A stretch of DNA of 44,094 nt from an uncultured Candidatus Binatia bacterium. Lineage in GTDB: Bacteria; Desulfobacterota; Binatia; UBA9968; JAJDTQ01. Positions 10,700 through 39,794 of the stretch are shown in pieces. Position 1 is the first letter of the stretch. Every line of letters begins with the position of its first letter. The stretch covers positions 1 to 44,094 of the forward strand of contig CBDCAF010000017.1 in assembly GCA_965213675.1 (NCBI GenBank), given 5' to 3'. A program made the position numbers and the translations under genes. The notes below the pieces were generated by a model. The model was not told the DNA's origin, searched no databases, and saw only the letters and a program-made list of their open reading frames with translations.

Positions 10700-10981
10700 A
10701 TGAGCACACGACGACGGTTCAGCGGAGACTTCAAGGCGAAGGTGGCGCTGGAGGCGCTGCGCGGGGACAAGACGATCCAGGAGATCGCTGTGCGGCACAA
10801 GGTTCATCCGAACCAGGTGAGCACGTGGAAGCAGCGTGCGGTGGAGGGGATGAAGGAGGTTTTCACGAAGGGTGCGGAGCGGACGAGGGGCGACCACGAG
10901 GGGGAGGTTCGGGACCTGCACGCGAAGATCGGGGAGTTGACGGTGGAGCGGGATTTTTTGGCCAAAGGGCTCAAGTGGTGA
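10700..10981 (+). CDS. IS3 transposase OrfA (HTH)
   Basis: RRRFSGDFKAKVALEAL...IAVRHKVHPNQVSTWK...LHAKIGELTVERDFL. Confidence 0.93.
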   Translation: MSTRRRFSGDFKAKVALEALRGDKTIQEIAVRHKVHPNQVSTWKQRAVEGMKEVFTKGAERTRGDHEGEVRDLHAKIGELTVERDFLAKGLKW

Positions 10982-12558: not shown

Positions 12559-12820
12559 GGTTACCTCCTGGAAGCGCGACACCAGCATGGTTGCAACGGT
12601 ACCGGGTTAAGCCAACCATTCCCAGGTTTTCTCAAAAGTTCAAGGGGCCACTGGTAGCTCTCTGGAATATTGGCAGAAATTTCCCATGCCGAGGCCTCGC
12701 TCGGTCGTGCTCCTCGGGGGGCGTGGGATAGTGCCCTACGGTGGACAAAACGACCCAAAAAGGCATAAGAAGGACCTGAACCAACAAGAAAAAGAGGAGG
12801 ATCGAAACTTGAGCGTAAGC

Positions 12821-13867
12821 ATGCCGACAACTACGACCGGCCTGGACCCGGCCACCGAGATCATCGTATCCGCGGACTCCCACATCATGGAGCCCACGGA
12901 CCTGTGGGTCAAGAACCTCCCCGCGAGCTTCAAGGGCCGCTATCCCGAGTTTCCGCCCCGGAACGCCATCGGCGAGAAGCCCGGCGGCTACGACCCGCGG
13001 GCGCGGGTGGAGGAGATGGCGGTGGACGGAGTGTCCGCCGAGGTACTCTACCCGACCCTGGGACTGCGCCTGTTCGCCCTGGAGGACGCAGAGCTTCAGG
13101 AAGCCTGCTTCGAACTCGCCAACGACTGGCTCATCGACTACTGCAAGGTGCACCCCCACAAGCTCGTGGGCGTGCCGTCGATCTCGCTCTACAACATCGA
13201 CAACGCCATCAAGGAACTGGAGCGCTGCAAGAAGGCCGGGCTGGTGGGCTGCCTGATCTGGCAGGTGCCGCCGGATCACCTCCCCTTCACCAGCGACCAC
13301 TACAACCCGTTCTGGGAGGCGGCGCAGGATCTGCAGATGCCCGTCAACCTGCACATCCTCACGGGGTTCAACTACAGCCGGTACGAAAGAGAGGGCCTGG
13401 ACGTCTACCGCATGACCGTCAACCAGAAGCTGGCGGACGCCGCCAACACCCTGTTCGAGTTGGTCTTCGGCGGCCCCATGTCCAACTATCCGGACCTCAA
13501 GTTCGTGTACGTGGAGAACGAGATCTCGTGGATCCCGTTCTACCTCCACGAGTGGGACAAGTACTTCAAGCGCCACGCCACCAAGGCGCCGCTGCCGCAC
13601 ATGAAGAAGCTTCCCAGCGAGTACTGCAGCGAGCAGTTCTACGCCACCTTCTTCAGCGACCCCACCGGCGGCCGGCTGCTGGACTGGTGGGGCAGCGAGA
13701 CCTGCATGTGGTCCAACGACTACCCGCACGCGGCGTCCACCTGGCCGCACTCGCGCCAGGTCATCACCGACGAGCTCGGACACCTGCCGTCGGACATCTT
13801 CCGCAAGGTGGTGCGCGAGAACGTGCTGAAGCTCTACGACCTCAAGCTGGAGGGCGTCAACGCCTGA
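12821..13867 (+). CDS. Amidohydrolase_2 family protein
   Basis: VSADSHIMEP, DGVSAEVLYPT, PVNLH, MWSNDYPH. The start could be TTG 12809. Confidence 0.9.
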   Translation: MPTTTTGLDPATEIIVSADSHIMEPTDLWVKNLPASFKGRYPEFPPRNAIGEKPGGYDPRARVEEMAVDGVSAEVLYPTLGLRLFALEDAELQEACFELANDWLIDYCKVHPHKLVGVPSISLYNIDNAIKELERCKKAGLVGCLIWQVPPDHLPFTSDHYNPFWEAAQDLQMPVNLHILTGFNYSRYEREGLDVYRMTVNQKLADAANTLFELVFGGPMSNYPDLKFVYVENEISWIPFYLHEWDKYFKRHATKAPLPHMKKLPSEYCSEQFYATFFSDPTGGRLLDWWGSETCMWSNDYPHAASTWPHSRQVITDELGHLPSDIFRKVVRENVLKLYDLKLEGVNA

Positions 13868-14659: not shown

Positions 14660-15643
14660 ATGCTGCACCACACCGGCCAGATCCTCTACAACATCCTGCT
14701 GCCGCTGCTGCTCATGGTGGGCTTCGGCACGCTGCTGCAACGCTACCAGTCGTTGAGCCTGGAAACCCTCGCCCGCATCAGCATGTACCTGCTGGTGCCA
14801 TCGTTCCTGCTGGTGAAGATCTACGACAGCGACATCCCCTGGGGCCAGATCGGGCTCATCGCCTTGGTGTTCCTGATCGTCCTGGGAGTCCTGGGGGTGC
14901 TGCTGTTCACCAGTAGCCGCGCCATCGGCGCGCCCAACAAGACCGTTGCCGCCGTCATCCTCGGCAGCATCGTTTTCAACGCCGGCAACTTCGGCATCCC
15001 GGTGGCCCACCTGCTCTACGTCGAGGGCGGCACGCTGTTCGCGGGCCAGCCCAACACCGAGGCCGGGCTGCACGTGCAGGCACTGGTCGTCATGCTCAGC
15101 AACCTGCTGGTCTGGATCCTGGGCTACGCGGTGCTGGCGGTGGCCAAGGGCGGCCACGCGCGGGAGGCCCTGGGAATCCTCAAGCTTCCCATACCCTACG
15201 CGCTGGTGAGCTCGTTCGTGCTGCGGGAGATCCGTCTGCGATCGTTCAACGGCGTGGACTTCCTGCCGGTGTGGGTGTCCTTTCCGCTGCGCTCGCTGTC
15301 CGGGGCGCTGGTGCCCATGATGCTCGTGGCCCTGGGCGCTCAGCTTGCCAAGGGCGCCCGCTGGCCCCGATGGCGGCAGGTGGCGCCCATCGCGTTCGTC
15401 AAGCTCCTGGCCTTGCCCGTGCTCGTCGGCACCGCGGCATACGCCTTCGGCCTCTGGCCCTGGCCCGGCGCCCACCTCATCATCGGCGCCGCCGCCCCCA
15501 CCGCCGTCAACACCCTCATCCTCACCATCGAGCTCGACGGCGACGCCGAACTCACCGGCGACGTGGTGTTCTGGACCACGATCTTCTCCGGCCTCACCGT
15601 GGCCGGAGTCATCGCCGTGGTGACGGCGCTGGGGGCGGCTTGA
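14660..15643 (+). CDS. AEC (auxin efflux carrier / malate permease) family transporter
   Basis: Multiple TM segments; FNAGNFGIP, PMMLVALGAQL, AAAPTAVN. Confidence 0.9.
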   Translation: MLHHTGQILYNILLPLLLMVGFGTLLQRYQSLSLETLARISMYLLVPSFLLVKIYDSDIPWGQIGLIALVFLIVLGVLGVLLFTSSRAIGAPNKTVAAVILGSIVFNAGNFGIPVAHLLYVEGGTLFAGQPNTEAGLHVQALVVMLSNLLVWILGYAVLAVAKGGHAREALGILKLPIPYALVSSFVLREIRLRSFNGVDFLPVWVSFPLRSLSGALVPMMLVALGAQLAKGARWPRWRQVAPIAFVKLLALPVLVGTAAYAFGLWPWPGAHLIIGAAAPTAVNTLILTIELDGDAELTGDVVFWTTIFSGLTVAGVIAVVTALGAA

Positions 15644-15784
15644 TGCTGTTTGGACCGTGACGTCCACTGTCTCCGCGAGCAGCCTTGACGCAAGGGTTCT
15701 TGAAGAAAGAGAAACCCAAGGAAACCGGTGTATTGCGGGTTGCCCCTTGACTCGCCCGGAGAGTTGTGGCGTCAACGGAACATC

Positions 15785-16492
15785 ATGAACCTTTACGGGG
15801 GAAAAGACCCACGTGAGTTGCCGGCCTATGGAATAGGCGAGGCGGCCCACTACCTACGCATACCACCGAGCACGCTGCGGACGTGGGTTCGTGGGCGAAC
15901 CTATCCGACCGCCCAAGGCGAGCAATGGTCCGAACCGGTGATCAAGCTGGCGGACGAATCGCGTGGCCTTTTATCTTTCGTGAACCTGACAGAGGCGCAC
16001 GTCCTCGAAGCCATTCGACAATGCAAAGTACCGTTCAGAAGCATTAGGCGTGGCCTGGACTATCTCTATCAGCAAACTCCGTCGCCACATCCGTTGGCTG
16101 AAAAGGACTTTGAAACGGATGGTATGGACCTGTTTGTTGACCAACTCGGGGAGGTGGTCAACATAACTCAAGGTGGGCAAATCGGTATACGCGAGTTTCT
16201 TAGAACATACTTGAAGAGAATCGAGCGTGACATGACCGGTATTGCGACGAAGCTCCATCTGTTCAATCGGAGAGACCTGCCGCCCGCCGAAGTCCGCCAA
16301 CCCCGGGTTGTCGTTGATCCGCGTATTTCGTTTGGTCGTCCCGTGTTGGTGGGTAGCCACATAGCAACGAGAGTCGTCTACCAACGCTTCGCAGCCGGGG
16401 ACTCCGTCGAAGAACTCGCTGCCGATTATGCCCGCCCCCCGTCAGACATCGAAGAAGCTATCCGATGCGAGCAATTCGAGCCGGCCGCCTGA
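15785..16492 (+). CDS. DUF433-domain antitoxin (VapB45-like, MerR-type HTH plus DUF433)
   Basis: YGIGEAAHYLRIPPSTLRTW, LSFVNLTEAHVL, HPLA...FETDG, VVVDPRISFGRPV...AGDSVEELAADY. Confidence 0.88.
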   Translation: MNLYGGKDPRELPAYGIGEAAHYLRIPPSTLRTWVRGRTYPTAQGEQWSEPVIKLADESRGLLSFVNLTEAHVLEAIRQCKVPFRSIRRGLDYLYQQTPSPHPLAEKDFETDGMDLFVDQLGEVVNITQGGQIGIREFLRTYLKRIERDMTGIATKLHLFNRRDLPPAEVRQPRVVVDPRISFGRPVLVGSHIATRVVYQRFAAGDSVEELAADYARPPSDIEEAIRCEQFEPAA

Positions 16493-16652
16493 AAATCTCA
16501 CCTTCTTCCTCGATCAATGCCTGGGGGGAAAGATTTTTGCCGCCGCACTGCGCGAACGTGGATTCCAGGTCGAACTGTGCTCTGACGCCGTATCTCTTGT
16601 GACTGCCGCGGACCGCCCGGCACTCTTCGACATGTCCCATCCAGATGCTTGA
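16428..16652 (+). pseudogene. Truncated VapC45-like PIN toxin
   Basis: Overlaps the antitoxin end. TFFLDQCLGGKIFAAALRERGFQVE matches the PIN-like N-terminus, then similarity is lost near 16575 and the ORF stops at 74 aa. Confidence 0.7.
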
Positions 16653-16695
16653 AGATACATAAGCGCACTATTCTGGCTATGTCCGGAGGAATCGT

Positions 16696-17481
16696 ATGAA
16701 ACTTTCAGATCAGATCGCAGTCATCGTCGGCGGTGCCCGGGGCATCGGCGAGGCCATCGCCCACACCTTCGCGGGTGAGGGCGCAAAGATCGTTCTGGTG
16801 GATCTCGAGAAGATGGAGCCGGAGCTCGACGGGGTCGTCCAAGCCATCGGACAGAAGGGCGGCGAGGCCGTAGCCATGACGGCCGATGCCACGGACGCGG
16901 CGCAGATGGACGGGATGGTGGCCGACGTGGTGAGCCGCTTGGGCCGGCTGGACATCCTTGTCAATAGCGTCGGCTTCCGCGGGCCCATGGTCGAGGTGCA
17001 CGAGATCACCGAGGACGAGTGGGATCAGGTCCTCAACGTCAACCTCAAGGCGATCTTCCTCTGCTGCAAGGCGGCGCTGCCGGTGATGATCGAGCAGAAG
17101 CGCGGCAGCATCGTCAGCATCTCCGGCACTGCCGGACGCGAGGGCATGGCCCTGCGCGGCTCCCTGTGCGCTGCCAAGTGGGGCCTTCTGGGCCTCACCC
17201 AGACCATCGCCAAGGAGGCCGGGCCCTCGGGCGTGCGCGCCAACGTCATCTGCCCCGGCGGCATGGACGAAGCCGACCTGCGGGAGATGTACCAGGAGCG
17301 TGCCAAGGGCCTCGGCGTCTCCTTCGAGGAGTTGTGGGAAAACGTCCTGAAGCAGACGCCGCTGCGGAAACACGCACTGCACGAGGAAGTAGCCAACGCC
17401 GCCCTCTTCCTGGCCTCCAGTGATTCGTCGCACACCACGGGGGAGGCGCTGAATGTATCTGGCGGGAGGTTGATGTCCTGA
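16696..17481 (+). CDS. SDR family oxidoreductase (FabG-like)
   Basis: GGARGIG, LDILVNSVG, GVRANVICPG, TGEALNVSGG. The catalytic YxxxK appears as LCAAK. Confidence 0.92.
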   Translation: MKLSDQIAVIVGGARGIGEAIAHTFAGEGAKIVLVDLEKMEPELDGVVQAIGQKGGEAVAMTADATDAAQMDGMVADVVSRLGRLDILVNSVGFRGPMVEVHEITEDEWDQVLNVNLKAIFLCCKAALPVMIEQKRGSIVSISGTAGREGMALRGSLCAAKWGLLGLTQTIAKEAGPSGVRANVICPGGMDEADLREMYQERAKGLGVSFEELWENVLKQTPLRKHALHEEVANAALFLASSDSSHTTGEALNVSGGRLMS

Positions 17482-17752
17482 GTGGGGAGTGCAGGTAAAG
17501 CGGTAGTCGAGAACAATCCGTTGAACCACCGAAAGAAATCTGCGAGACTCGACCCAACAGACACTGGCATCAGTTTTGCGGTTGCATCCATATGTGTGGA
17601 GTCATTCTAAACGAACTGGAACGGTAGAGCCGCCGAGTCTATCAGGGTTGGGAAGGGCCACGGGGGCACCTCATAGACCGAGTAACTTATTGAAAACACA
17701 TCGAAAACTGTATTTCGTAGGCGACGAGTGGGTATCGTATCCAGAAGAGGGC

Positions 17753-18898
17753 GTGTACCTAGACTACGCTGCGACGACCCCTGTTGCACCGGAAGTCGCG
17801 AACACGATGGCCAAGTTTCTGACAGCCGACGGCGTCTTCGGAAACCCGCATTCCGTCACCCACCGCTTTGGGCATGCAGCTTCAGAGGCTATTGAGGAGG
17901 CCCGCGGGCATGTCTCGCGGTTGATCGGCGCAGACGCCGATGAAATCTTCTGGACCTCCGGTGCGACAGAGGCGATCAATTTAGCCATCAAGGGAGTAAT
18001 GCTATCGCCTAGCGTACGCGGTCGGCATCTCCTCGTCTCCTCACTAGAGCATAAGGCAGTACTCGATACCGCAGACTGGCTCTCTGGCCAGGGCGTGGAG
18101 GTGACCTACCTCACACCTGACGCCGATGGCATGATCACGCCGGATGTCGTCCGCGCGGATCTTCGACCGGACACCGCGTTAGTCTCCCTTATGCACGTAA
18201 ACAATGAGGTTGGGACTGTTACTGATATCCCGAGCATAGCGCGCGTGGTACGGAAAAACGGCACACTGTTTCATGTCGACGCCGTACAGAGCGCCGCACG
18301 ACTTCCGATCGATGTCTCGCTCATGGGAGTAGACCTCCTGTCATTGAGCGGCCACAAGATATATGGCCCGAAAGGTGTGGGTGCTCTATTTGTGCGCCGC
18401 TCCGTTCGGCCGTTGCTCATCCCCCAGATCCATGGAGGCGGACAAGAAGCTGGGCTGCGGGCTGGGACGTTGGCGACCCACCAGGTTGTTGGTCTAGGAG
18501 CGGCGGCGCGGCTCACAAACGACTGTCAGAGTAGTGACGCGGAACGAGTGGCAGCCATCGACCGACGCCTCCTTGGCTGGTTGGACGAGATTGGCGGGGC
18601 GGTCGTCAACGGCAACCGTACCGCGCGAGTCCCAGGCATTTTGAACATTGCCTTTCCCGGCGTGGAGGCCGAGTCGCTGATGCTGGCTCTTGGCGATGTT
18701 GCGATCTCGGCAGGTTCCGCATGCACGGCGGCGTCGATTGAGCCATCACACGTGCTGGAGGGACTCGGTGTCACCGAAACGCTGGCACTCTCCTCCGTGC
18801 GATTCAGCGTTGGTCGCTATACTACAGAGGTAGAGGTCGACTTCGTTGGACAACGCGTTAATGACGCTGTGTCAACCCTTCGGAGCATCACGACATGA
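17753..18898 (+). CDS. dndA: Cysteine desulfurase (IscS/DndA type)
   Basis: YLDYAATTP, FGNPHS, WTSGATEAIN, EHKAV, HVDAVQ, SLSGHKIYGPKG (PLP Lys), SAGSAC (catalytic Cys). The dndA name rests on its ATGA coupling to dndC. Start uncertain (GTG 17753). Confidence 0.88.
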   Translation: MYLDYAATTPVAPEVANTMAKFLTADGVFGNPHSVTHRFGHAASEAIEEARGHVSRLIGADADEIFWTSGATEAINLAIKGVMLSPSVRGRHLLVSSLEHKAVLDTADWLSGQGVEVTYLTPDADGMITPDVVRADLRPDTALVSLMHVNNEVGTVTDIPSIARVVRKNGTLFHVDAVQSAARLPIDVSLMGVDLLSLSGHKIYGPKGVGALFVRRSVRPLLIPQIHGGGQEAGLRAGTLATHQVVGLGAAARLTNDCQSSDAERVAAIDRRLLGWLDEIGGAVVNGNRTARVPGILNIAFPGVEAESLMLALGDVAISAGSACTAASIEPSHVLEGLGVTETLALSSVRFSVGRYTTEVEVDFVGQRVNDAVSTLRSITT

Positions 18899-20067
18899 AG
18901 GCGCCGACGAGTTCAACGGCGACCAGTAACAGCCTGACGAGTCTACCTACGCGGCTCAAGAAGATCGCAGAGACCCTCCGACGGGAGTACTGTCGCAAGC
19001 ACGGCCATCCCTGGATTGTTGCTTATTCTGGAGGGAAGGACTCTACCCTTCTCCTACAGATGATTTGGGAAACAGTTGCCGGGCTACCAACAGACCAACG
19101 GCAGCGATCCATCTTCATCGTCGGCAATGATACTCTAGTCGAGTCGCCGCTCGTCATTCGGCATCTCCGAGGATCGCTCAACGTGATTGAGGCCGCCGCC
19201 ACAACACAAGAAATGCCTGTGGACATTCGGGTCACCACACCAGCCATCGATCAGACCTTTTGGGTGAGTGTGATAGGGCGGGGATACATACCTCCCACCA
19301 GGAATTTTCGGTGGTGCACAGACCGAATGAAAATTCGGCCGACTGGCCGTCTGTTGCAAGACATCGTGAGAGAGCATGGGGGGGCCGTTCTCCTAATCGG
19401 TAGCCGCCGGAGCGAGTCACAAAACCGGCAGCGAGGCATGGACCGACGCAAGGTGTCTGCCGGGAAAAGCAATCAACACGACTCTGTGGAGGGCTGTCGG
19501 ATATTCTCCCCGCTTGCCGACCTCAGCGATGAGGATGTCTGGATGGTATTGATGCAGCGCCGCCCACCATGGGGCGGCACCCATCGCCGGCTAATCACTC
19601 TCTATCGTCAAGCCGGAGGGGGCGAGTGTCCACTGGTAATGACACAAGACGACGCACCGTCATGTGGCAGTTCCTCCCCACGATTCGGCTGTTGGACATG
19701 CACGGTGGTCACTAAAGACCGCAGTCTCCGGGGCCTGATCGATTCAGGGCACGAGGAGGCCAAGAAGATGGAAAGCCTGTCGGACTTCCGCGAATGGCTC
19801 ATCGCCTTGCGGGAGGACGACAGCAATCGACTTCCCGTGCGCCGTGACGGTAACCCTCGGAACCGGTCCGACGGCTCCCAGGTGTTCGGTCCATTCACCC
19901 TAGCAGTCCGCCGAACCATTCTTGATCGACTCTTTGCACTAGAGAAAACGGTCGGCGACACCCTCATCAGCCCGGCGGAAATCGAGTGCATCGAAGACGT
20001 TTGGTGGCGTGACGAGATCACCGAAAACGGTCGACTCGCCCTTCTCAAATCCGTACATCCCTTATGA
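18895..20067 (+). CDS. dndC: DNA phosphorothioation sulfurtransferase DndC (PAPS-reductase/PP-loop family, Fe-S)
   Basis: PWIVAYSGGKDST, NDTLVESP, FWVSVIGRGYIPP, FRWCTDRMKIRP, GSRRSES, PPWGG, ECPLV, SCG...RFGCWTCTVV.KDRSL, GPFTL..R. Confidence 0.9.
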   Translation: MKAPTSSTATSNSLTSLPTRLKKIAETLRREYCRKHGHPWIVAYSGGKDSTLLLQMIWETVAGLPTDQRQRSIFIVGNDTLVESPLVIRHLRGSLNVIEAAATTQEMPVDIRVTTPAIDQTFWVSVIGRGYIPPTRNFRWCTDRMKIRPTGRLLQDIVREHGGAVLLIGSRRSESQNRQRGMDRRKVSAGKSNQHDSVEGCRIFSPLADLSDEDVWMVLMQRRPPWGGTHRRLITLYRQAGGGECPLVMTQDDAPSCGSSSPRFGCWTCTVVTKDRSLRGLIDSGHEEAKKMESLSDFREWLIALREDDSNRLPVRRDGNPRNRSDGSQVFGPFTLAVRRTILDRLFALEKTVGDTLISPAEIECIEDVWWRDEITENGRLALLKSVHPL

Positions 20068-21836
20068 CCCAGATCACGTCAGAGGCATTGCTCGTGTCCG
20101 AGCTCTTCCTCAAGGGACGGTTCACAGTGCCGTGGCATCAGCGGTATTACGACTGGACCGTAGAGCAGGTCACCGAGTTGTTGGTCGACCTCAAAGAAGC
20201 CCTGGACGAAGATCGGGCAAGTTACTTCCTCGGGTCCATTATGCTGGTCGCGGGTGAGGATGTTTGGGAAATCAACGACGGTCAGCAGCGCATGATCACC
20301 CTCTCCCTACTCTTTGCTGCATTCGGCCGGCGGTTCGCAAATAACCGCGAAACGGACGCTGGCCGTGAAATGCTCGCGTTGCGCGTACTGTTCGATCGCC
20401 CGGAGAACGCGGTCACCAACTTCGACGACACGACCCGGGATGTGCCTCGCGTCGAACCGCCACGCCAAGACCGATCGCGGTTTACTCAGATTATCCGTGG
20501 CCTCGACATCGGGACGAACGGCAAATTGACCTCCGCCTGGAACGAAGTGGCCCTGTTCGTCAGCGCAATGGGGCCGAGTGAGACCCAAACGTTTTTCGAT
20601 TTCCTGACGCAGAAGGTAGAGATTGGTGTCCTCTACGTCCCCAAGACAGAGGACGCCAATGCCGTTTTCGAAGCCCTCAATGGACGAGGCAAGCGACTGG
20701 ATGACGTTGATCTAATTCGAAACCACCTTTACTCGTACTTCACAGATCCTGCCGACTCAGAGCGGCGCGCCACCGTCCACGAGCAGCTTGAAAGCGTCCT
20801 CGCAACTACTCGAAGCACTACGCGATCCCAAGAGTATTTCCGCTGTTTCTTTCAATGTCGGTACGGCTATCTTCAGAAGACCCGCTTTTATCGCGATACT
20901 CGGGCGAAGATCCGCAATCCTGGGCGACGACCGGATGGAGACAAGCACGTTTACGCGCTAGTCCATGAGCTTGCTAGTCCCGCTGCCGTGGAACTGTTCC
21001 GGACTATCACTGCCACAAACCCAAGCAAGGAACTGCTTAATGCCTTCTGCACGGCGTCCGGCACCACCCGAAACAAACGTAATCTGCCTGTGTTCATTCA
21101 GGAATTGGGTGGTTATAAGGTCGTGCAACCGCTAATGTTTGCATTGTTACGGAAGTTCATTGAAGCCGAAGATCGGTACCGGAGAGCAGTAGCCAAAGCC
21201 GCGCATCACTGCCTCAGCGACCTTTCTTCCTTCGTGATGCGCGTCTCCTTCTGCGGGGCCAAATTCGAACCATCCAGAGTCGAGCCGGGTTTTGCCAATT
21301 GTGCCAGGAGAATCGCGACCAGTAGCAAGGTCGCTGACCTCGACATAAAAACAGATCTCGAAGAATGTGATGACTTGATGATAATGGACGACACACGATT
21401 TATTTCTCGCCTCCTCGATGTTCAGATGACCGATTCCCGGCGAGCCAAACGACTGTTGTTCGGAATCAACGGCAAGCAAGAACGTGAAGGCCGCGCATTC
21501 GACTATGAAGGATGTTCCGTGGAACACATCTTGCCGCAGTCGGAGACCTACTGGTCCGGCTGGACCGGCTTCACGTCGGTGGGATACGACCTCCGGGACT
21601 GGGTTGCTCGAATCGGGAATCTGACATTGCTGGGCGACAGCGGAAATCATGCACGGCACCGTTTCAACGCGAACTTCGCCGCCAAGAAGGCTGTTTTTGA
21701 GACCAGCCCATTTGGAATGACGCGCGATGTAGCTATACATGACGAGTGGACTCCGACGGCGGTGGCCGAACGCTCAAGGGACCTCGCAAAGGCGGCCGCT
21801 CAGGTGTGGTGCTTTTCCGGACGCGAGGAGAGCTAA
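20064..21836 (+). CDS. DUF262 + DUF1524 (HNH) protein, GmrSD/SspE-like modification-responsive nuclease
   Basis: VPWHQRYYDW, YFLGSI, INDGQQR, VFEALNGRGKRL (DUF262); SVEHILPQ and RIGNLTLL...N (DUF1524). ATGA overlap with dndC. Confidence 0.88.
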   Translation: MTQITSEALLVSELFLKGRFTVPWHQRYYDWTVEQVTELLVDLKEALDEDRASYFLGSIMLVAGEDVWEINDGQQRMITLSLLFAAFGRRFANNRETDAGREMLALRVLFDRPENAVTNFDDTTRDVPRVEPPRQDRSRFTQIIRGLDIGTNGKLTSAWNEVALFVSAMGPSETQTFFDFLTQKVEIGVLYVPKTEDANAVFEALNGRGKRLDDVDLIRNHLYSYFTDPADSERRATVHEQLESVLATTRSTTRSQEYFRCFFQCRYGYLQKTRFYRDTRAKIRNPGRRPDGDKHVYALVHELASPAAVELFRTITATNPSKELLNAFCTASGTTRNKRNLPVFIQELGGYKVVQPLMFALLRKFIEAEDRYRRAVAKAAHHCLSDLSSFVMRVSFCGAKFEPSRVEPGFANCARRIATSSKVADLDIKTDLEECDDLMIMDDTRFISRLLDVQMTDSRRAKRLLFGINGKQEREGRAFDYEGCSVEHILPQSETYWSGWTGFTSVGYDLRDWVARIGNLTLLGDSGNHARHRFNANFAAKKAVFETSPFGMTRDVAIHDEWTPTAVAERSRDLAKAAAQVWCFSGREES

Positions 21837-21953
21837 TGGTCAATGAAGTCATATGTATTTGCAGTTCGCTGGTCACAGGCTAACTTCGATGACACAGCAC
21901 ATTTCGCGGGCGGTTATCGAGACATGCCAACGAGATATCGCTGAAGCTGCCGT

Positions 21954-23366
21954 GTGGGTGTGGGTCTTCGAGTGACGCTGGACGTGCAAGATCTCCGGAG
22001 CGCGGCCGAAGATCAACTCATGCTCCCCGCCGCCCTTCACACGTACCAGTGGGAGGGAGTGGCATTCCTGTACCAGTCCACGTCTGCCCTTCTCGCTGAC
22101 GAGATGGGATTGGGAAAAACCGTCCAGGCAGCAATCGCTCTTGCACTTCTCCTCAATGGACAAAAGGGGATCGACCGAGCCCTGATCGTGGCCCCGGCCT
22201 CGCTGACGCTGAACTGGATGTCCGAACTCACTACATGGGCACCGTCACTGGCGACGCGACGGCTTCAGGGCGGGGCCGCCAGCCGGAAGGCATTCTACCT
22301 GCTGCCGATCCCTGTTCTCGTTTCCTCTTACGAACAGATCCGTCAAGACGGACTGGATCAGATTCCCAAAGGCACGTTCGATCTCGTCATCCTGGACGAA
22401 GCGCAACGCATCAAGAACAAGAACTCCGCAACGGCACTCGCCTGCCGGCTGCTGCCGCGAAAACGTGCGTGGGCACTGTCTGCGACGCCGCTCGAAAACG
22501 ACCGCGAAGACGTCGCCTCAATCCTCGCCTTCCTGGACCCCGATATTCGTCGGGATCCCGATGCAACACGGCTGAACAAGAGGCTGGAGGCAATGATGCT
22601 GCGGCGGCGGAAACGTGAAGTGCGGGCCGAACTGCCGGCTGTCATCGTACAGGATCTGTACCTCGAGCTCTCGTCGCCACAAAGGATCGCCTACGACGAT
22701 CTGTGGGCGGCCAGAACGGCACAAATCGGCGGGGAAAAGGAAGACTCCAACGCCGCCATGCTCGGTCTCATTACGCGACTAAAGGTGATCTGCAACTACG
22801 ACGTCGAGAGCGGTGCTTCATCGAAACTGGAGGCCCTCACAGCCATCTGCGAAGGCGCTGGGCAATCGGCGAGGATGATTGTGTTTTCGCAGTTCGTCCA
22901 GACCCTGCGGCAGATTTCCCAGCGGATCGGAATACCCCACGACCTTCTGATCGGATCCATGCCGGCAGCCGAGAGACAGATTTCTATCGACCGGTTCAGG
23001 ACAGGCCAAACACCGCGGGCACTATTGATTTCCCTTCGTGCCGGCGGCGTCGGCCTGAACCTCGGGGAGGCGACCCACGCCGTCCTGTTCGACCGCTGGT
23101 GGAATCCTGCAGTCGAGTTCCAGGCAGTCTACCGAGCGCACCGCTTCGAACGGGAAGGGCCGCTGCATGTCATCCGTTTCCTGGTCCGAGACTCGGTCGA
23201 AGAGCGCATAGCTACAGTGCTCGACCGGAAGGAGGCCCTATTCGACGAGGTCATCGAATCTGTGGGGACGGTGCGCGGGCGACTCACCAAGCGCGAACTC
23301 ATGGAGATTTTAGAACTTGCGGAGGGCACCCTTTCGCCCTCTTCCAATGCAACCGAAGGAGACTAA
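21954..23366 (+). CDS. SNF2-family ATPase/helicase (core domains only)
   Basis: YQWEGV, LLADEMGLGKT, LIVAPASL..NW, ILDEAQRIKN, LSATPLEN, LRRRK, IVFSQF, SLRAGGVGLNL, DRWWNPA, RAHRF. Start uncertain. Confidence 0.93.
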   Translation: MGVGLRVTLDVQDLRSAAEDQLMLPAALHTYQWEGVAFLYQSTSALLADEMGLGKTVQAAIALALLLNGQKGIDRALIVAPASLTLNWMSELTTWAPSLATRRLQGGAASRKAFYLLPIPVLVSSYEQIRQDGLDQIPKGTFDLVILDEAQRIKNKNSATALACRLLPRKRAWALSATPLENDREDVASILAFLDPDIRRDPDATRLNKRLEAMMLRRRKREVRAELPAVIVQDLYLELSSPQRIAYDDLWAARTAQIGGEKEDSNAAMLGLITRLKVICNYDVESGASSKLEALTAICEGAGQSARMIVFSQFVQTLRQISQRIGIPHDLLIGSMPAAERQISIDRFRTGQTPRALLISLRAGGVGLNLGEATHAVLFDRWWNPAVEFQAVYRAHRFEREGPLHVIRFLVRDSVEERIATVLDRKEALFDEVIESVGTVRGRLTKRELMEILELAEGTLSPSSNATEGD

Positions 23367-23370
23367 AGCC

Positions 23371-24189
23371 ATGGCAAAAATCATCGATTACCGCGAAATA
23401 CCCCTCGACGACTTGGTAATTGGTCTGGGACAGGTCCGGACAGAGAACCCGGGGGCCGGCGTTGAGGATCTCGCCGCAAGTATCGAAGCGCAAGGGCTAC
23501 TGCAACCGATCGTGGTTTGCAAGTCGAAACAACAGCCCGGGAAATGGGAGATCCTTACAGGTCAGCGGCGCTTCCTCGCTTACAAGATGCTGAATCGAGA
23601 CACCATCTCGGCCGCCGTGCTTGACAGCCAAGTCGGGCAGGCTGAGGCCAAGACAATCTCCATCACCGAAAACCTAATACGTCGCAAGCTGTCGGGCAAA
23701 GAACTCAAGGATGGAATCCTTTACCTTTACAACATATACGGAAGCGTTCAGGACGTGGTCAAGACAACAGGCCTGCCCCATCGGGAAGTGCGGGACTACG
23801 TAAAGTACCCCCGGCTGGTGAAACAACTGAAGGACTTGGTCGACGAAGGACAAGTTGATGTCAATGCCGCACTGCGTGCGCAGGATTCGGCAACGGACGA
23901 CGACGGCGCGGTCAACACCGACGACGCCCTTGTCTTGGCCCAGGAGATGGCATCGATGTCAGGAGCCCAACGCAAGAAGGTGGAGGAGGATCGAAGAGAC
24001 AATCCCGACAAGTCTGTCGTAGAGGTTATAGAGGGCGCGAAGTCCGGCTCGAAGGTCATCCAGGTTGTCGCTACCGTGACACAGGATACGCATCGTGCCA
24101 TCCAGCAGGTCGCCCGGGAAGAAGGCACCAACCAGGGAGACGCGACCGTCATGCTCATCGAAGAGGCGCTGACCGGCCGCGGACTCTGA
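23371..24189 (+). CDS. ParB/RepB/Spo0J-like protein (ParB N-domain, HTH, possible C-terminal ribbon-helix-helix)
   Basis: IPLDDL, QVR, LAASIEAQGLLQPIVV, EILTGQRRFLA, SITENLIRRKLS; AAGGAG RBS. Confidence 0.85.
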   Translation: MAKIIDYREIPLDDLVIGLGQVRTENPGAGVEDLAASIEAQGLLQPIVVCKSKQQPGKWEILTGQRRFLAYKMLNRDTISAAVLDSQVGQAEAKTISITENLIRRKLSGKELKDGILYLYNIYGSVQDVVKTTGLPHREVRDYVKYPRLVKQLKDLVDEGQVDVNAALRAQDSATDDDGAVNTDDALVLAQEMASMSGAQRKKVEEDRRDNPDKSVVEVIEGAKSGSKVIQVVATVTQDTHRAIQQVAREEGTNQGDATVMLIEEALTGRGL

Positions 24190-24203
24190 GATTAGTAGCC
24201 ATC

Positions 24204-24914
24204 ATGCTCCCAGGTCTGAGCCCTCTAGAACTTGGACGTCTCCGGATGTCGGTCGGCTACGGGAAACATAGAAAGCAGCGTCTACTTTCGCCGGTCGAAG
24301 TCGGTGCATTGCTGCAGCGGGCATGCGATGCCGGCAGTTCACTTGACGAATGTGCAAAGGAGACCTGGATCGACGCGACGGGCGTTAGACGTTTCCTGCG
24401 TATTCTTGACCTCCCGGACGACCTCCGGCACGTGATAAGTTGGGGCAGCCCTCGAGATGCCGTGGGGTTCTCTTGTGCTACCGAACTCACCCGACTTCCG
24501 AAAGCTGACGACCAACGCACGGTCGCCGAAGCGATACTCGCCAACGGCCTGAATAGCAAAGAGGTCCGACAGGTCGTGCAACTGCACGAACGCTCACGAC
24601 GGCCGGTCAGCGAGTGCGTGAAGGAAGTCATCAACATGCGGCAAGCAATCGACCGGCGTTACGTGTTCATCGGCACCATACTTGATCGCGGTGCACAGCG
24701 AGCTCTTGCGGAGCTTCCACAAAGAGAAAGGGATGCAATGTTGGCGGCGGGCGTGGAGAAAATCGGGCTAAAGGGGGCGTCAGGACGCCTAGGCCCCAAA
24801 ATTTTCACCTTGGTCGGGGACGAGGGTTTTGGCGTGTCAATGAAGCATGTCGGCAAGCAAGACATTGAATCTCTGCTGCGCGCCTTTGTTGCGGAGTGTG
24901 TCGCAAATGCCTGA
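24204..24914 (+). CDS. Hypothetical protein resembling the ParB/Spo0J central HTH domain without the N-terminal CTPase domain
   Basis: LSPVEVG..L...GSSLDECA......VRRFLRILDLPDDLRHVI..G.....SCATELTRL...DQRTVAEAILANGLNSKEVRQVV parallels the Spo0J HTH/helical region. Confidence 0.6.
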   Translation: MLPGLSPLELGRLRMSVGYGKHRKQRLLSPVEVGALLQRACDAGSSLDECAKETWIDATGVRRFLRILDLPDDLRHVISWGSPRDAVGFSCATELTRLPKADDQRTVAEAILANGLNSKEVRQVVQLHERSRRPVSECVKEVINMRQAIDRRYVFIGTILDRGAQRALAELPQRERDAMLAAGVEKIGLKGASGRLGPKIFTLVGDEGFGVSMKHVGKQDIESLLRAFVAECVANA

Positions 24915-25929
24915 CCCGATGGTTGACGTGCGGGAGAGTGGCGCTGTCTGCCTCGGCGAGATGGTCGTGTGCGACGGTTTCGCTAATGGCTGCCGCTTCC
25001 GTGTCCAGACACACGTCCATGAAGACCACATGGGTGCGTTCAACAAGAGCAAGGGGCTGCAGGAGTTCCTGCTAAGCCCTGAGACCTATGCTTTGCTCAT
25101 TGCCGAGTACAATGCTGATCTGGAGTACCGAGAGAACTTCCACCCGGTCGAACGCGGTGTCGCGCATGATCTGGGAAAAGGCTTTACGTTACATCTAGTC
25201 CCATCGAACCACATGCTTGGATCGTGTCAGGTTGCCCTGGAGTTGCCAGACGGTCATCGGATTGGATATTCCGGCGACTTCGGATGGCCCCTCGACAACG
25301 TGATCCAAGTCGATGAACTGGTCGTTGACAGTACTTATGGTAACCCCCGTAGCGTCCGAGGTTACACGCAGGACCAAGCGGAAGCCTGCCTGTCTGAAAT
25401 AGTCTGTGCGAGACTACGGCACGGTTCAGTCCATATCCACGCCCACCCCGGAACCATCGAACGCACCTTGCAGGTGCTTGGAGACAACGTGGGCGTTCCC
25501 CTTCTGGCCACCGAGCGGCTAATCCGGCGCGTGCAGGTATACCAGCAGCATGGCCTCGCGCCCGGAGTACTGGTTCCGCTCGATTCCGCCGACGGCAGGC
25601 ACGCCGTGCAACAGCGTTCATATGTGCGGCTCTACTCAAAGGGCGACGGTTTCAAGAACGAGCGAGTCGAGGGGACAATGGTCACCTGTAGCGCGTACAT
25701 GGTCGACCACGACCATCCGCTGAAGGTCTTTTCAGATCGGGCCTATCGCGTGGCCTTGTCGAACCACGCTGATTTCGAAGAAACCCTTGCGTATGTCGCG
25801 GCGACGGGAGCGCAGACGGTAGTCACCGACAACACACGAAACTTCGGCTGTGACTTGGCAATCGCGATCAATGACCGCCTACCCAATGTTTGTGCACAGC
25901 CGTCGACGAACCAGCCCGAACGGGACTGA
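24907..25929 (+). CDS. Metallo-beta-lactamase fold nuclease, beta-CASP-like
   Basis: THVHEDH (HxHxDH), NHMLGS, GYSGDF, VDSTYG, LSNHADF. ATG overlaps the upstream gene by 8 nt. Confidence 0.82.
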   Translation: MPDPMVDVRESGAVCLGEMVVCDGFANGCRFRVQTHVHEDHMGAFNKSKGLQEFLLSPETYALLIAEYNADLEYRENFHPVERGVAHDLGKGFTLHLVPSNHMLGSCQVALELPDGHRIGYSGDFGWPLDNVIQVDELVVDSTYGNPRSVRGYTQDQAEACLSEIVCARLRHGSVHIHAHPGTIERTLQVLGDNVGVPLLATERLIRRVQVYQQHGLAPGVLVPLDSADGRHAVQQRSYVRLYSKGDGFKNERVEGTMVTCSAYMVDHDHPLKVFSDRAYRVALSNHADFEETLAYVAATGAQTVVTDNTRNFGCDLAIAINDRLPNVCAQPSTNQPERD

Positions 25930-26039
25930 TAGCGGTGTCCAGTCCAAGTAATCTTCGACGCCCTTCTACACGTTCACTTGCTCCATCTGTGTCGTCTGCC
26001 TACATGGTCTCAACGACGACCCGGGTGAATTGTGGGCCA

Positions 26040-26290
26040 AGCTTTCCGAGGCAAGTTAAACTCGCGATTCTGATCTTAGCCGGCGGCGACCCCTCTTGGC
26101 CGGCAGGAGCCTCGCGTAGGAGATCCTACAGCCGGTCGAGCGGTGACCGGCCGCGGAGGCTGTCGCGCGTACGGTCCCGGTTGTAGGACGCTTAGCCCCT
26201 CGGCGAGCCTCTCCTCAGGCTCTGTATCCCTCAGATTGACGGTGCGCCTGAACCCTTCGAGTAGGCTGGTTTCATACTTTCGGATCTCGT
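26040..26290 (-). pseudogene. Degenerate IS481-like transposase 3' remnant
   Basis: LEGFRRTVNLRDTEPEERLAE, then a frameshift to YNRDRTRDSLRGRSPLDRL and a stop. Resembles the integrase-core tail (YNxxRPHxSLxGxxP). Confidence 0.4.
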
Positions 26291-26373
26291 GCCCGGTTGC
26301 CAACAGCGGGGTAAGGGAGAAGGGTGTCGGTTTTGCCGCGTCCTCTAAAACACAACAGTGCCCTAGACCGCAC

Positions 26374-26535
26374 CTATATTGCTCCTACACGCCGTAAGTC
26401 GCGAAAGAATTGGGCGATCTCTTCCAGTTTATTCGTGTCATTAGGGTCTATACCGTCCGGATCGAAATGCATTACGTCATTCCGAATTTCCCGTTCCGCT
26501 AGACTCTTGAGTCGTTCGGAGCCTTCAACCGCCAT
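26374..26535 (-). pseudogene. 53-aa ORF with HEPN-like RNxxxH tail, probably an internally deleted larger gene
   Basis: Strong RBS (AGGAGGGGAGG) then MAVEGSERLKSLAE joined directly to REIRNDVMHFDPDGIDPNDTNKLEEIAQFF. Confidence 0.5.
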
Positions 26536-26653
26536 ACAATAGGCCTCCCCTCCTATCTCCTGTTTCCTCAAATTGATTATATCGACCTGCAAATGCCAAG
26601 AATCGAAGCTCTACGGTTACTAAGGCAAATCAAATTCCGCTTCAAGTTTGCAC

Positions 26654-27634
26654 CTACACGTTCACCCGCTTCATGTCCCGCGTCCGGTTCCCGGCGGCGG
26701 CGCCGTAGGGAAGGATGGCGTCCAACCGCTGCAGGTCCTCATCCGTCAACTCCACCTCAACGGCTTTGATGTTCTCCTCCAGGTGCTTGCGGCTTTTGCT
26801 GCTGGGGATGGGGATGATGTCGGGGCCTTGGGCCATGAGCCAAGCCAGGGCAAGCTGGGTCGTGGTGATGCCCCTCTCCCTGGCGACTTCGTCCACTTGG
26901 GCGAGCAGGTCCAGGTTGCGCTCGATATTGCCGGGTTGGAGGCGGGGCTGGTTGCGGCGGTTGTCGCGTTCGGACAGATCGTTCAGGTCACGCACGGCGC
27001 CGGCGAAGAAGCCGCGGCCCAGGGGCGAGTAGGCCATGAGGCCCATGCCGAACTCGCGGCAGGCCTCGATGTTGCCCTGCTCGGGGTCCCGGGACCAGAG
27101 TGAGTATTCGATCTGGAGCGAGACGATGGGGTGGACCTTTTGGGCGCGGCGGATGGAATCGGCGCTGGCTTCGGAGAGTCCGATGTAGCGGGTCTTGCCT
27201 TGCTCCACCAAGCGCGCCATGCCGCCCACCGATTCCTCCACCGGGACGGCGGGGTCGATGCGGGACATGCAGTACATGTCCAGGCAGTCGATGCCCAGCC
27301 GCTGGAGGCTCTCCTCGCAGGTCTGGACGAGGTACTCGGGCGAACTGCCGCCGTCGAGGCCGGTGCCGGCGGCGGACCGCGGGCTGCCGGACTTGGAGTG
27401 GATCACCACCTGGTCGCGCCGGCCCTTGATGGCCTTGCCGATGAGCTCGTGGTTGTGGCCGTTGCCATAGCTGGCGGAGGTGTCCAGGAAATTGATGCCG
27501 AGGTCGAAGGCCCGGTGCAGGGTGGCGATGGATTCATCGTCGTTGCCGGCGCCGTACATGCCCGACATGCTCAGACAGCCGAGCCCCATGGGCGACACCT
27601 TGCAGTCGGTGGTTGCGAACTGGCGGTACTCCAT
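26654..27634 (-). CDS. Aldo/keto reductase
   Basis: MGLGCLSMSGMYG, FLDTSASYG, SLQRLGID, GKTRYIGLSE, QIEYSLWSR, YSPLGRGF; GAGGAG RBS. Confidence 0.95.
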   Translation of the reverse strand: MEYRQFATTDCKVSPMGLGCLSMSGMYGAGNDDESIATLHRAFDLGINFLDTSASYGNGHNHELIGKAIKGRRDQVVIHSKSGSPRSAAGTGLDGGSSPEYLVQTCEESLQRLGIDCLDMYCMSRIDPAVPVEESVGGMARLVEQGKTRYIGLSEASADSIRRAQKVHPIVSLQIEYSLWSRDPEQGNIEACREFGMGLMAYSPLGRGFFAGAVRDLNDLSERDNRRNQPRLQPGNIERNLDLLAQVDEVARERGITTTQLALAWLMAQGPDIIPIPSSKSRKHLEENIKAVEVELTDEDLQRLDAILPYGAAAGNRTRDMKRVNV

Positions 27635-27743
27635 GTGCGTTTCTCCTCGTTGGCGGCGTTCATCCCGCCTGAAGCCGACGTTCCAGACTGTGCCACTACT
27701 ACGTCTTTGGGCGCGGAGAGGCAACGATGTCCAGCGCAACCGG

Positions 27744-28955
27744 TCAGGCGGGCGGATTCCCGGAGACGATGGCGGGGAGGTCGCGCAGCGACACGGCGGT
27801 CACGCCCTCACCGAGGGAATGGCTGGACACGGGCCGGCCGATGACGTAGTGCGGGCCGGGGCGCCAGGGGCTGTTGGACGCGGCCAGCCCGGCGCTCACT
27901 CGCAGCAACCCGCGCGCGTCACGCAGGGTGGGCCGCTCGCTCCACTTGCATTCCATGAAGCCGAGGACGCCGCCGGCGTCGCGCACGAAGTCCACTTCCT
28001 GGCCGCGCTGGTCGCGGTAGTACCAGAAGTTGACAGGCGCGGACTCGGCCTCGTTCAGCTTGCGCATCTCCGCGAACACGAACGTCTCCCATACCGCGCC
28101 CAGGGCCGGCGAGGTGAGCAGCGTGGAGGCGTCGAGCCCCAGCAGAAAGCAGAGCAGGCCGCTGTCGCGGAAATAGACCTTCGGCGTCTTCACCACTCGT
28201 TTGCCGAAGCTCACGTGCCAGGGTTCCAGCAGGACGATCTGGCCGGACGCCTGGAGCACGCTCACCCACTCGCCGATGGTCTTCACCGCCACGCCGGTGT
28301 CCCGTGCGACGTCGCTCTTGTTGAGCATGGCCGCCGAGCGCGCCGCCAGGACGCGAACGAAGCGCTCGAAATCCCGGAGACTCGCCACGTTCAGGATCTG
28401 GCGCACGTCGCGCTCGAGGTAGGTGGCCAGGTACGATGCGAGGAAATCCGTAGCCGGCAGTTCCGGCGCGCGCCACAACTCCGGGAACTGCCCCCGGGCC
28501 ATCAGGCCGGCGAGGCTGGCCGCGTCGTCACCGGTTGGGGTCACGGCGTCGATCTCGTGCAGCGCCAGGTTTTCCAACTCCACGATCCCGCAACGGCCCG
28601 CAAGACTGTCCGAGGTCCCTTTCATGAGCGTGAAGTTCTGGCTGCCGGTGAGGATGTAGCGGCCCATGTCATGGCGACGGTCATCGATGGCCGCCTTCAC
28701 GTGGCGGAACAGGCCGGGCGCGTACTGCACCTCGTCGATGAGCACGGGCGCCGGATGGTGGTGCAGGAACAGGTCCGGATTGCGTTCGGCCTGGTCGGCC
28801 GTGGTGGGGAGGTCCAGGGAGACGTAATGATGATCCGGGAAGGTAGCGCGCATCAGGGTCGTCTTGCCCGCCTGACGCGCACCGGTGACTACCACCGCCG
28901 GAAAGTGCTCCGCGAGCCGGAGCAGCCGGTCAGCCAGAGCCCTGGGGTACTGCAT
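27744..28955 (-). CDS. AAA_14 ATPase with DUF4143 / C-terminal PD-(D/E)xK-like domain
   Basis: TGARQAGKTT, IDEVQY, ILTGSQ, SLAGR, TYLERDV, KTPKVYFRDSGL, EVDFV, MECKW. Confidence 0.9.
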   Translation of the reverse strand: MQYPRALADRLLRLAEHFPAVVVTGARQAGKTTLMRATFPDHHYVSLDLPTTADQAERNPDLFLHHHPAPVLIDEVQYAPGLFRHVKAAIDDRRHDMGRYILTGSQNFTLMKGTSDSLAGRCGIVELENLALHEIDAVTPTGDDAASLAGLMARGQFPELWRAPELPATDFLASYLATYLERDVRQILNVASLRDFERFVRVLAARSAAMLNKSDVARDTGVAVKTIGEWVSVLQASGQIVLLEPWHVSFGKRVVKTPKVYFRDSGLLCFLLGLDASTLLTSPALGAVWETFVFAEMRKLNEAESAPVNFWYYRDQRGQEVDFVRDAGGVLGFMECKWSERPTLRDARGLLRVSAGLAASNSPWRPGPHYVIGRPVSSHSLGEGVTAVSLRDLPAIVSGNPPA

Positions 28956-39791: not shown

Positions 39792-39794
39792 GCG

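Follow-up and report, generated by a model that had tools for sequence, protein, structure and literature searches.

It is an open question how the enzymes of phosphorothioate (PT) modification locate their DNA targets and open them, and almost all studies of it concern the DndCDE and SspBCD systems. A seven-gene locus of an uncultured Candidatus Binatia bacterium raises this question in a simpler form: can sulfur be written into DNA by a desulfurase and a short DndC that have neither the SMC-like ATPase DndD nor DndE beside them? The locus lies on a stretch of 44,094 nucleotides (GenBank assembly GCA_965213675.1, contig CBDCAF010000017.1, positions 1 to 44,094 of the forward strand), which was analyzed as a whole and is called the window here. 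An earlier, sequence-only reading had described seven co-oriented genes at positions 17753-25929, and both the gene junctions and the domains it gave agree with the coordinates of the open reading frames (ORFs) and with our domain scans. The genes and their predicted products are the following.

g1, 17753 (GTG start) to 18898, plus strand: DndA/SspA-like cysteine desulfurase
g2, 18895-20067, plus strand, ATGA overlap with g1: short DndC
g3, 20064-21836, plus strand, ATGA overlap with g2: DndI-like DUF262/DUF1524 protein
g4, 21954-23366, plus strand, 117 nt after g3: SNF2 helicase core
g5, 23371-24189, plus strand, 4 nt after g4: ParB/Noc-type protein
g6, 24204-24914, plus strand, 14 nt after g5: ParB-type helix-turn-helix (HTH) protein
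g7, 24907-25929, plus strand, 8-nt overlap with g6: compact beta-CASP nuclease

We infer, with a probability of roughly 0.55, that this block is a two-module PT restriction-modification defence operon, and the inference extends to its PT chemistry, its anti-phage role, the division of labour between its modules, and the sensing of PT. For comparison, species-representative genomes were scanned with the DndC protein. The scan matched 540 stretches; relatives are encoded in 526 of them, and the analysis covered the best 80 (56-100% identity). All 80 loci are contigs of metagenome-assembled genomes from 80 species, one of them (L004) being the genome of the window itself. The presence of genes in these loci was assessed by tblastn with the seven window proteins, and g1 and g3 were counted at a coverage of at least 80%.

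Core module

The first three genes form the core. The product of g1 has a class-V aminotransferase fold (Pfam Aminotran_5, E = 4.5e-83) and matches the PADLOC models of both SspA (1.5e-145) and DndA (2.1e-142), whereas its score against the NCBIfam DndA model TIGR03235 is 378 bits, under the cutoff of 480. It is probably a pyridoxal phosphate-dependent cysteine desulfurase that serves as the sulfur donor. The 390-aa product of g2 scores 335 bits against the NCBIfam equivalog model of DndC (TIGR03183, cutoff 290), with profile positions 6-341 of 447 covered. In PADLOC it matches DndC at 3e-111 versus SspD at 1.1e-05, and BrxP matches its PP-loop part only (3.7e-10). The SGGKDS motif (residues 45-50) and cysteines 141, 201, 245, 257, 266, and 269 are invariant in 62 aligned sequences. 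By these scores g2 is a short DndC, a predicted PP-loop ATP pyrophosphatase/sulfurtransferase. Thus, sulfur-mobilising and PP-loop enzymes are present, as had been claimed. Neither single-sequence nor profile searches found a solved relative of this DndC in the PDB.

The product of g3 contains the Pfam domains GmrSD_N (3.3e-25) and GmrSD_C (1.1e-17), which correspond to DUF262 and DUF1524, and matches PADLOC Orf5 over its full length (9.2e-47). A profile search of the PDB gives DndI as the best match (9JFL, E = 2.8e-29), followed by SspE (3.7e-17). The DGQQR motif (72-76), H488, and N519 are invariant among the aligned homologues. The protein is therefore assigned, on homology, as a probable DndI-like DUF262 NTPase with a DUF1524 HNH nuclease. 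The sequence-only reading had counted it among unusual effectors. This part of the reading is abandoned, because its closest solved relative is a published PT effector: DndI is described as a DUF262/DUF1524 nickase that couples with PT made by IscS-DndBCDE in Salmonella Cerro 87 (PMC11662687). In four related loci (L029, L033, L042, and L074) the DndI-like gene is split just downstream of dndC into a DUF262-only ORF, followed by the rest of the gene or by other genes; this may be either a natural split or decay.

Absence of DndD and DndE and a predicted DndC-g3 complex

PADLOC scans of the seven proteins and of 17 further window ORFs (24 proteins) found no DndD, DndE, DndB, SspB, or SspC, in agreement with the earlier statement that these proteins are absent from the window; BrxC, BrxZ, and BrxL were not found among the 24 proteins either. 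With a plasmid query, tblastn detected no DndD in the window or within 10 kb in the 80 loci, the matches being limited to PbeA-like ATPases (L005 and L073) and to short fragments. A plasmid DndE query likewise detected nothing in the window or in the 80 loci (±10 kb), although for this small, fast-evolving protein the sensitivity of the search is limited.

The length of the window DndC is in line with these results. Residues 21-373 of g2 align to residues 27-401 of a 544-aa DndC from E. coli, whose gene precedes ORFs of DndD and DndE size, and the last ~143 residues of the latter protein (402-544) have no counterpart. In DndC of E. coli B7A, the surfaces reported to bind DndD are residues 433-482 and the last C-terminal helix (PMC12193691). 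Judged by the alignment, the window DndC is without the region through which E. coli DndC binds DndD.

A different partner is suggested by structure prediction. The predicted complex of DndC and g3 has a median ipSAE of 0.70 (0.68, 0.70, and 0.78 in individual runs), and the best of three controls reaches 0.25. Of 80 solved complexes, 58 attained the ipSAE mark, as did 2 of 110 mismatched pairs; these counts are only a rough guide here, where our own alignments were used. The runs share at least 88% of contacts, and the partner pLDDT is at least 78. On DndC the interface is formed by residues 115-120, 148-160, 318-322, and above all 360-389; on g3, by residues 124-168, 243-248, 305-328, and 365-370. 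As no relative of this DndC by sequence is present in the PDB, the score is unlikely to reflect a complex memorised by the prediction model. The prediction supports binding of DndC and g3 to each other. Since g3 is also a near-invariant partner of dndC, following it in 71 of the 80 loci, it may take part in modification besides acting as an effector.

Downstream module

The 470-aa product of g4 consists of a helicase core only (Pfam SNF2-rel_dom 7.9e-45, Helicase_C 8.8e-19). Its PADLOC matches are limited to the C-terminal helicase cores of DpdE and ZorD, and all its NCBIfam scores are far under the cutoffs (77.7 bits for DpdE, with a cutoff of 500, and 116 bits for ZorD, with a cutoff of 1500). 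The Walker A motif GLGKT (52-56) and the DEAQ motif (148-151) are invariant in 32 sequences. The protein is most probably a minimal SNF2-family ATPase/translocase. No further ATPase motor was found in the cassette by Pfam and PADLOC scans.

Two ParB-related proteins follow. The first, g5, has a Pfam ParB_N domain (3.2e-13) and scores 62.8 bits against TIGR00180 (cutoff 58.45). Its profile matches the structures of Noc and ParB over residues 6-164 (E = 5.7e-19), so that both the N-terminal and the HTH domains are covered, and the motifs GQRR (64-67) and ENLxRR (100-105) are invariant in the aligned homologues. It appears to be a ParB/Noc-type protein with an N-terminal CTPase-fold domain and an HTH domain, and it is a predicted member of the CTP-switch family. 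The match of g6 to Pfam HTH_ParB is weak (25.9 bits with a cutoff of 22.6, E = 1.1e-05). In its AlphaFold2 model (pLDDT 92.5), about 110 residues superpose on the DNA-binding domains of Spo0J, Noc, and ParB with a root-mean-square deviation of 2-3 Å, the Foldseek E-values being only 1.6e-3 to 1e-2, and its top Atlas cluster is 'ParB HTH domain-containing protein' (score 0.94). It has no ParB N-terminal domain and carries a C-terminal alpha/beta domain of no assigned kind. Both the profile and the model suggest a ParB-type HTH DNA-binding protein. As a detectable paralogue of g5 it was rejected, the hhalign match being non-significant (probability 3.6%, E = 0.012).

The last gene, g7, has no Pfam family. 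Its AlphaFold2 model, built from an alignment of 36 homologues (pLDDT 91.0, pTM 0.88), matches archaeal and human CPSF73, Artemis, SNM1A, and Apollo in Foldseek with a probability of 1.00, TM-scores of 0.6-0.73, and E-values of 5e-16 to 1e-13; RNase J is also among the best structural matches. Residues H36, H38, D40, H41, H102, D124, D141, and H287 are invariant in the 36 sequences. We take them to be the HxHxDH, His, and Asp motifs of the metallo-beta-lactamase (MBL) domain and the acidic and His residues of the CASP domain. Because of the structural matches and the invariant metal-binding residues, g7 is identified, through its modelled fold, as a compact beta-CASP nuclease of the MBL fold.

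No homologue of g6 was found in 72,556 plasmid records and none of g7 in 50,697 phage records. On plasmids, g7 has only partial MBL matches (coverage 21-39%, 8 records); the two contexts checked hold copper and nucleotide-metabolism genes and are unrelated to the cassette. A megablast search with the whole block gave no match among the plasmids.

Conservation and the exchangeable slot

The claim that the gene set is conserved together in other genomes proved correct. At least three of g4-g7 adjoin dndC in 40 of the 80 loci, with partial sets in four more, and dndA is present in 63. The 40 full sets span eight named phyla: Pseudomonadota (12), Acidobacteriota (11), Gemmatimonadota (4), Binatota (3), Thermodesulfobacteriota (3), Rhodothermota (3), Bacteroidota (1), and Latescibacterota (1), with two sets unplaced. 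A second Binatia species (L006) is syntenic with the window throughout the cassette and the flanking sequence. In each of the six enzymes or domains whose catalytic residues were examined, these residues do not vary among 32-62 homologues, and invariance of motifs across many phyla favours purifying selection over decay.

The nearest plasmid DndCs, at 44-49% identity, belong to canonical loci. In the three examined (L001-L003), DndD is present; a DndE family protein is found in two (L001 and L002). These loci also carry Pbe-like ATPases, and L001 and L003 a small protein. In the DndC tree (quick search, LG+G4 model) the 80 loci group together in a single clade that excludes the plasmid DndCs, with a support of 100 in the Shimodaira-Hasegawa-like approximate likelihood ratio test.

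Clustering of the ORFs of all 80 loci reveals what occupies the slot after g3.

SNF2-ParB-HTH-beta-CASP: 40 full and 4 partial sets in the 80 loci
DndB-family protein (Pfam PF14072, 3.3e-30; PADLOC DndB, 2.5e-16): 26 of 80 loci
PbeA, B, C-like genes and a small 'modification-associated' protein: 2 of 80 loci (L005 and L073)
Other content: 8 of 80 loci, two of them at contig ends

Thus, three module types account for 72 of the 80 slots. The DndB-family protein is preceded in 24 of the 26 loci by a protein of ~110 aa with a borderline match to GIY-YIG_2. A close DndB-like pair is observed in none of the 40 full sets, and a distant one (23-25% identity) lies further downstream in three of them. 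The cassette is composed of two recombining modules: a core formed by dndA, short dndC, and the DndI-like nuclease gene, and a swappable slot.

A different arrangement is seen in L017, where the order is dndA, dndC, g6 homologue, and HNH, and g3, g4, g5, and g7 are missing. An HNH_2 endonuclease recurs beside the cassette in L017 (11088-12969), L020, L030, L042, L060, L062, and L078; its N-terminal part matches the PADLOC model of type IV restriction.

Proposed mechanism

In the two-module operon that we favour, DndA would take sulfur from cysteine, and the short DndC, with its Fe-S cysteines intact, would activate the DNA backbone and insert the sulfur. It would work without SMC-like DndD and DndE, its C-terminal helix anchoring it on DndI-like g3. 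The latter protein, as a DUF262 NTPase and HNH nickase, would open access to DNA and pick the targets, and would also nick unmarked DNA. Module 2 (21954-25929), one of three interchangeable partners of the core (17753-21836), is most likely a second, motor-driven restriction arm. Its ParB CTP-switch protein and a putative HTH paralogue would load on DNA, the SNF2 ATPase would translocate, and the beta-CASP nuclease would degrade. PT marks on self DNA would stop module 2, as published for DndFGH.

A broader generalization is more tentative, and we give it somewhat less than even odds. The locus would represent a further type of PT system, in which DndC acts without an SMC-like ATPase and DndE, in a complex with a DndI-like protein that both targets and polices. 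Such a system would have a new ParB/HTH/SNF2/beta-CASP arm and would have spread horizontally through at least eight phyla of uncultured bacteria.

The possible implications are several. A widespread family without DndD and DndE, whose DndC seemingly docks on a nuclease/NTPase, would be a simpler test case for minimal PT writing, and it allows one to ask whether writer and reader share one targeting subunit. As defence effectors, the combination of ParB CTP-switch proteins with a minimal SNF2 motor and a beta-CASP nuclease would be new. Finally, three alternative partner modules on nearly identical cores constitute a natural experiment in mixing modification and restriction modules.

Alternative explanations

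A number of observations weigh against a co-operating, DndD-independent pair of modules. When pairwise identities are compared among 35 complete loci (595 pairs), the Spearman coefficient is 0.84 for dndC and g3 and 0.61-0.76 among g4-g7, versus only 0.27-0.46 between the core and g4-g7, which indicates loose co-inheritance. Loci of the SNF2 and DndB types are interspersed on the DndC tree, at least 11 slot changes are needed, and exchange was thus repeated. One locus (L005) shares with the window solely positions 17512-21819, at 82% DNA identity, and continues with Pbe genes; the match comprises exactly the dndA-dndC-g3 module and puts a recombination breakpoint at the g3/g4 junction. The 117-nt gap between g3 and g4 in the window and the opposite orientation of module 2 in L007 point the same way. 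Given the weak correlation between modules and their repeated exchange, module 2 could act alone. Then dndA-dndC-g3 would be a complete PT system, and the SNF2-ParB-HTH-beta-CASP genes a PT-independent neighbour in the same defence-island hotspot, a scenario that we regard as unlikely while giving it more weight than any other rival. It does not readily account for the filling of most slots by three module types, two of which (DndB family and Pbe) are known PT partners. Moreover, no space is left between g3 and g4 in 29 of 37 co-oriented loci, where the projected gaps are zero or negative (approximate values, as starts were projected from the alignment), so the gap in the window is an exception. 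Even where module 2 is divergent (L007) or partly inverted (L039), it is still adjacent to the core. Homologues of g6 stay near dndC in the absence of g3, g4, g5, and g7 (L017 and L031; directly after dndC in L017), and the plasmid and phage records hold no independent g6 or g7 homologues, respectively, apart from the partial MBL matches of g7 on plasmids. Our reading is that the two modules co-operate and are exchanged in the way of modification and restriction modules elsewhere, with an independent neighbour as a possible alternative. The single coupled cassette of the sequence-only reading therefore stands as regards conserved adjacency and has to be divided as regards inheritance.

The same genes may be distributed differently between modification and restriction. 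If the SNF2 protein and the ParB pair replaced DndD/DndE in scanning and loading, with the beta-CASP enzyme as a nickase, module 2 would itself be modification machinery. The PT pathways of Dnd, Ssp, and BREX type 4 are described as needing an ATPase and a DNA-binding or nicking partner (PMC12914056), ParB-superfamily proteins accompany DNA-modifying enzymes, as DpdB does DpdA (PMC12839542), and the cassette has no motor other than g4. Still, equally conserved dndC and g3 occur without the module in 36 of the 80 loci, 26 of which have only the DndB-like and small proteins, and DndC is predicted to dock on g3 (the prediction covered this pair only); we consider this role improbable. The absence of DndD and DndE, in turn, applies to the window and to 10 kb around the 80 loci, whereas whole genomes could supply both proteins from elsewhere, making the local genes merely accessory to a canonical but scattered Dnd system. 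The long C-terminal region is missing from a 355-aa plasmid DndC as well, yet this protein is encoded beside DndD and DndE; therefore, a short DndC is no proof of independence from DndD. In addition, dndA is often unlinked in known systems according to PMC12914056. This dispersed arrangement is more improbable still: DndD or DndE is found near none of the 80 loci, while the plasmid relatives have them adjacent, the loci form a clade of their own, and the C-terminal tail of DndC is predicted to bind g3 instead. We assign the lowest probability of all, a very small one, to a decaying remnant or to a sulfur or adenylation reaction of DndA and DndC that does not yield a phosphorothioate backbone. 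The PP-loop/PAPS-reductase fold serves many thiolation reactions (PMC12914056), DndA falls under its NCBIfam cutoff, and g3 is split in the four loci mentioned above; on the other hand, DndC scores above the equivalog cutoff, the motifs are without exception invariant over many phyla, and none of the seven window ORFs is truncated in comparison with its homologues. The favoured reading has one more weak point, in PT sensing. Retention of the PT-sensing Tyr in g3 was considered and rejected, because Y25 of DndI aligns to a near-invariant H25 of g3. Homology therefore gives no claim to PT sensing by g3, which may still sense PT through other residues.

Comparison with known systems

The closest published arrangement is IscS-DndBCDE-DndI, which likewise combines a cysteine desulfurase, DndC, and a DUF262/DUF1524 NTPase-nickase of ~590 aa, DndI being the best solved match of g3. 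It differs in several respects. Neither the window nor any of the 80 related loci has DndD or DndE, and the window has no DndB, whereas 26 sister loci encode a DndB-family protein. The window DndC has 390 aa versus ~540, its gene is immediately followed by g3, whose product is its predicted binding partner, and the position of the PT-sensing Tyr25 is occupied by His. The DndCDEA-PbeABCD loci provide the nearest plasmid DndCs, which are also short, and the sister loci L005 and L073 carry Pbe-like genes after dndA-dndC-g3. However, these plasmid loci have DndD and no DUF262/DUF1524 gene, and the window has SNF2-ParB-HTH-beta-CASP in the Pbe position. The resemblance to SspABCD-SspE consists in the score of g1 as SspA and in the DUF262 and DUF1524 architecture shared by SspE and g3 (E = 3.7e-17), whereas the window has neither SspB nor SspC, and the match of SspD to g2 is no better than 1.1e-05.

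Other systems resemble single parts of the locus. A motor and a nuclease beside a DNA-modification module are also found in DndFGH and in Dpd, where DpdB is ParB-like and DpdE is an SNF2 protein, and the core of g4 resembles those of DpdE and ZorD. Unlike DndFGH, the cassette has no homology to DndF, DndG, or DndH; unlike Dpd, it has a g4 far under the DpdE cutoff, no DpdB match for g5, and no tRNA-guanine transglycosylase gene (DpdA). In the pairing of a PAPS reductase with a ParB protein, IbrA/IbrB is a further parallel. BREX type 4 differs in that BrxP matches only the PP-loop part of g2 (3.7e-10) and BrxC, BrxZ, and BrxL are absent. PT synthesis is reported to need dndCD(E), sspBCD, or brxPC, except in Tdp, where tdpC alone suffices (PMC12914056). 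Thus TdpABC, compared by its description only, sets a precedent for PT synthesis by a single gene of the PAPS-reductase type and no SMC-like ATPase, whereas g2 is a DndC by its curated score.

The sequence-only reading did not recognize the arrangement from described systems. This is correct for the downstream module: PADLOC 2.0 (2023) has no model for g6 or g7, and a full-text literature search, paper supplements being outside it, found no description of SNF2-ParB-HTH-beta-CASP with dndC. For the core it has to be qualified, as dndC neighbourhoods with DUF262 have been mentioned. Among the untested candidates listed in PMC12914056 are small clusters in which dndC is accompanied by a P-loop NTPase and a DUF262 gene, and dndA/B/C-like genes with DUF262/DUF1524 are mentioned for sponge archaea in PMC6790972. 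A reappraisal of Dnd centres on the DndD-DndE pair (PMC10853773), and no account of the present arrangement was found in its text. We read the locus as an uncharacterised variant of PT defence, consisting of a DndD/DndE-less core and a previously undescribed partner module, its chemistry and phenotype being those expected from homology.

Composition and surroundings of the locus

The larger share of A/T-ending codons noted earlier in the block is evident from the G+C content of third codon positions (GC3), which is 0.60-0.69 in g1-g7 versus 0.84-0.93 in the neighbouring metabolic genes. The description of its borders as mobile and defence remnants fits in part: the immediate neighbours are metabolic, a short-chain dehydrogenase upstream (16696-17481) and an aldo-keto reductase downstream (26654-27739, minus strand), while genes of the other kind are found farther away, an IS3 transposase at 6 kb on the upstream side and a DUF4143 ATPase (PADLOC candidate PDC-S01) at 2 kb on the downstream side. 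No att-like repeats flanking the seven genes were found in a repeat search, and the window has no Rfam matches and no tRNA genes.

The region 17512-17752 (plus strand) is a non-coding leader of the core module, and the DNA match of 82% to L005 starts at its first position, 17512. It is probably the promoter region of the core, although a scan with the sigma-70 consensus found no site in it. A scan of 15600-26800 gave two promoter-like and nine terminator-like sites, no excess over the means for shuffled sequences (3.7 and 9.3, respectively).

Comparison with the syntenic locus L006 reveals two differences beside the cassette. A stretch of ~700 nt between the cassette and the aldo-keto reductase gene (25937-26653) is missing from L006; it is bracketed by a 21-nt direct repeat (25966-25986 and 26654-26674, 86% alike), and its small ORFs have no family match. 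On the other side, ~1 kb (15644-16684) is largely absent from L006 and holds a low-GC3 ORF (15728-16492) with HTH_66 and DUF433. Pfam gave no matches for five further small or unassigned ORFs of the window.

Other genes of mobile or defence type are scattered over the window. The IS3-family transposase (10700-11901) is encoded in two overlapping frames, an HTH_Tnp_1 ORF (10700-10981) and an rve integrase-core ORF (10825-11901). The ATPase at 27744-28955 (minus strand) contains AAA_14 and DUF4143 (PADLOC PDC-S01, 1.5e-97), and its family recurs near the cassette in several related loci. A low-GC3 two-gene unit at 39240-41003 (minus strand), encoding a 402-aa AAA_21 ATPase (PADLOC AbiLi, 7.2e-55) followed by a 183-aa ORF without a family, is possibly an AbiL-like abortive-infection pair. 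Two overlapping low-GC3 ORFs at 4995-7015 (368 and 305 aa) have no Pfam family and show weak matches to the PADLOC candidates PDC-M05A (2.6e-05) and PDC-M21B (9.2e-05). The window also contains five Amidohydro_2 paralogues (2-1621, 2710-3741, 3764-4795, 12686-13867, and 33394-34503) amid other catabolic genes.

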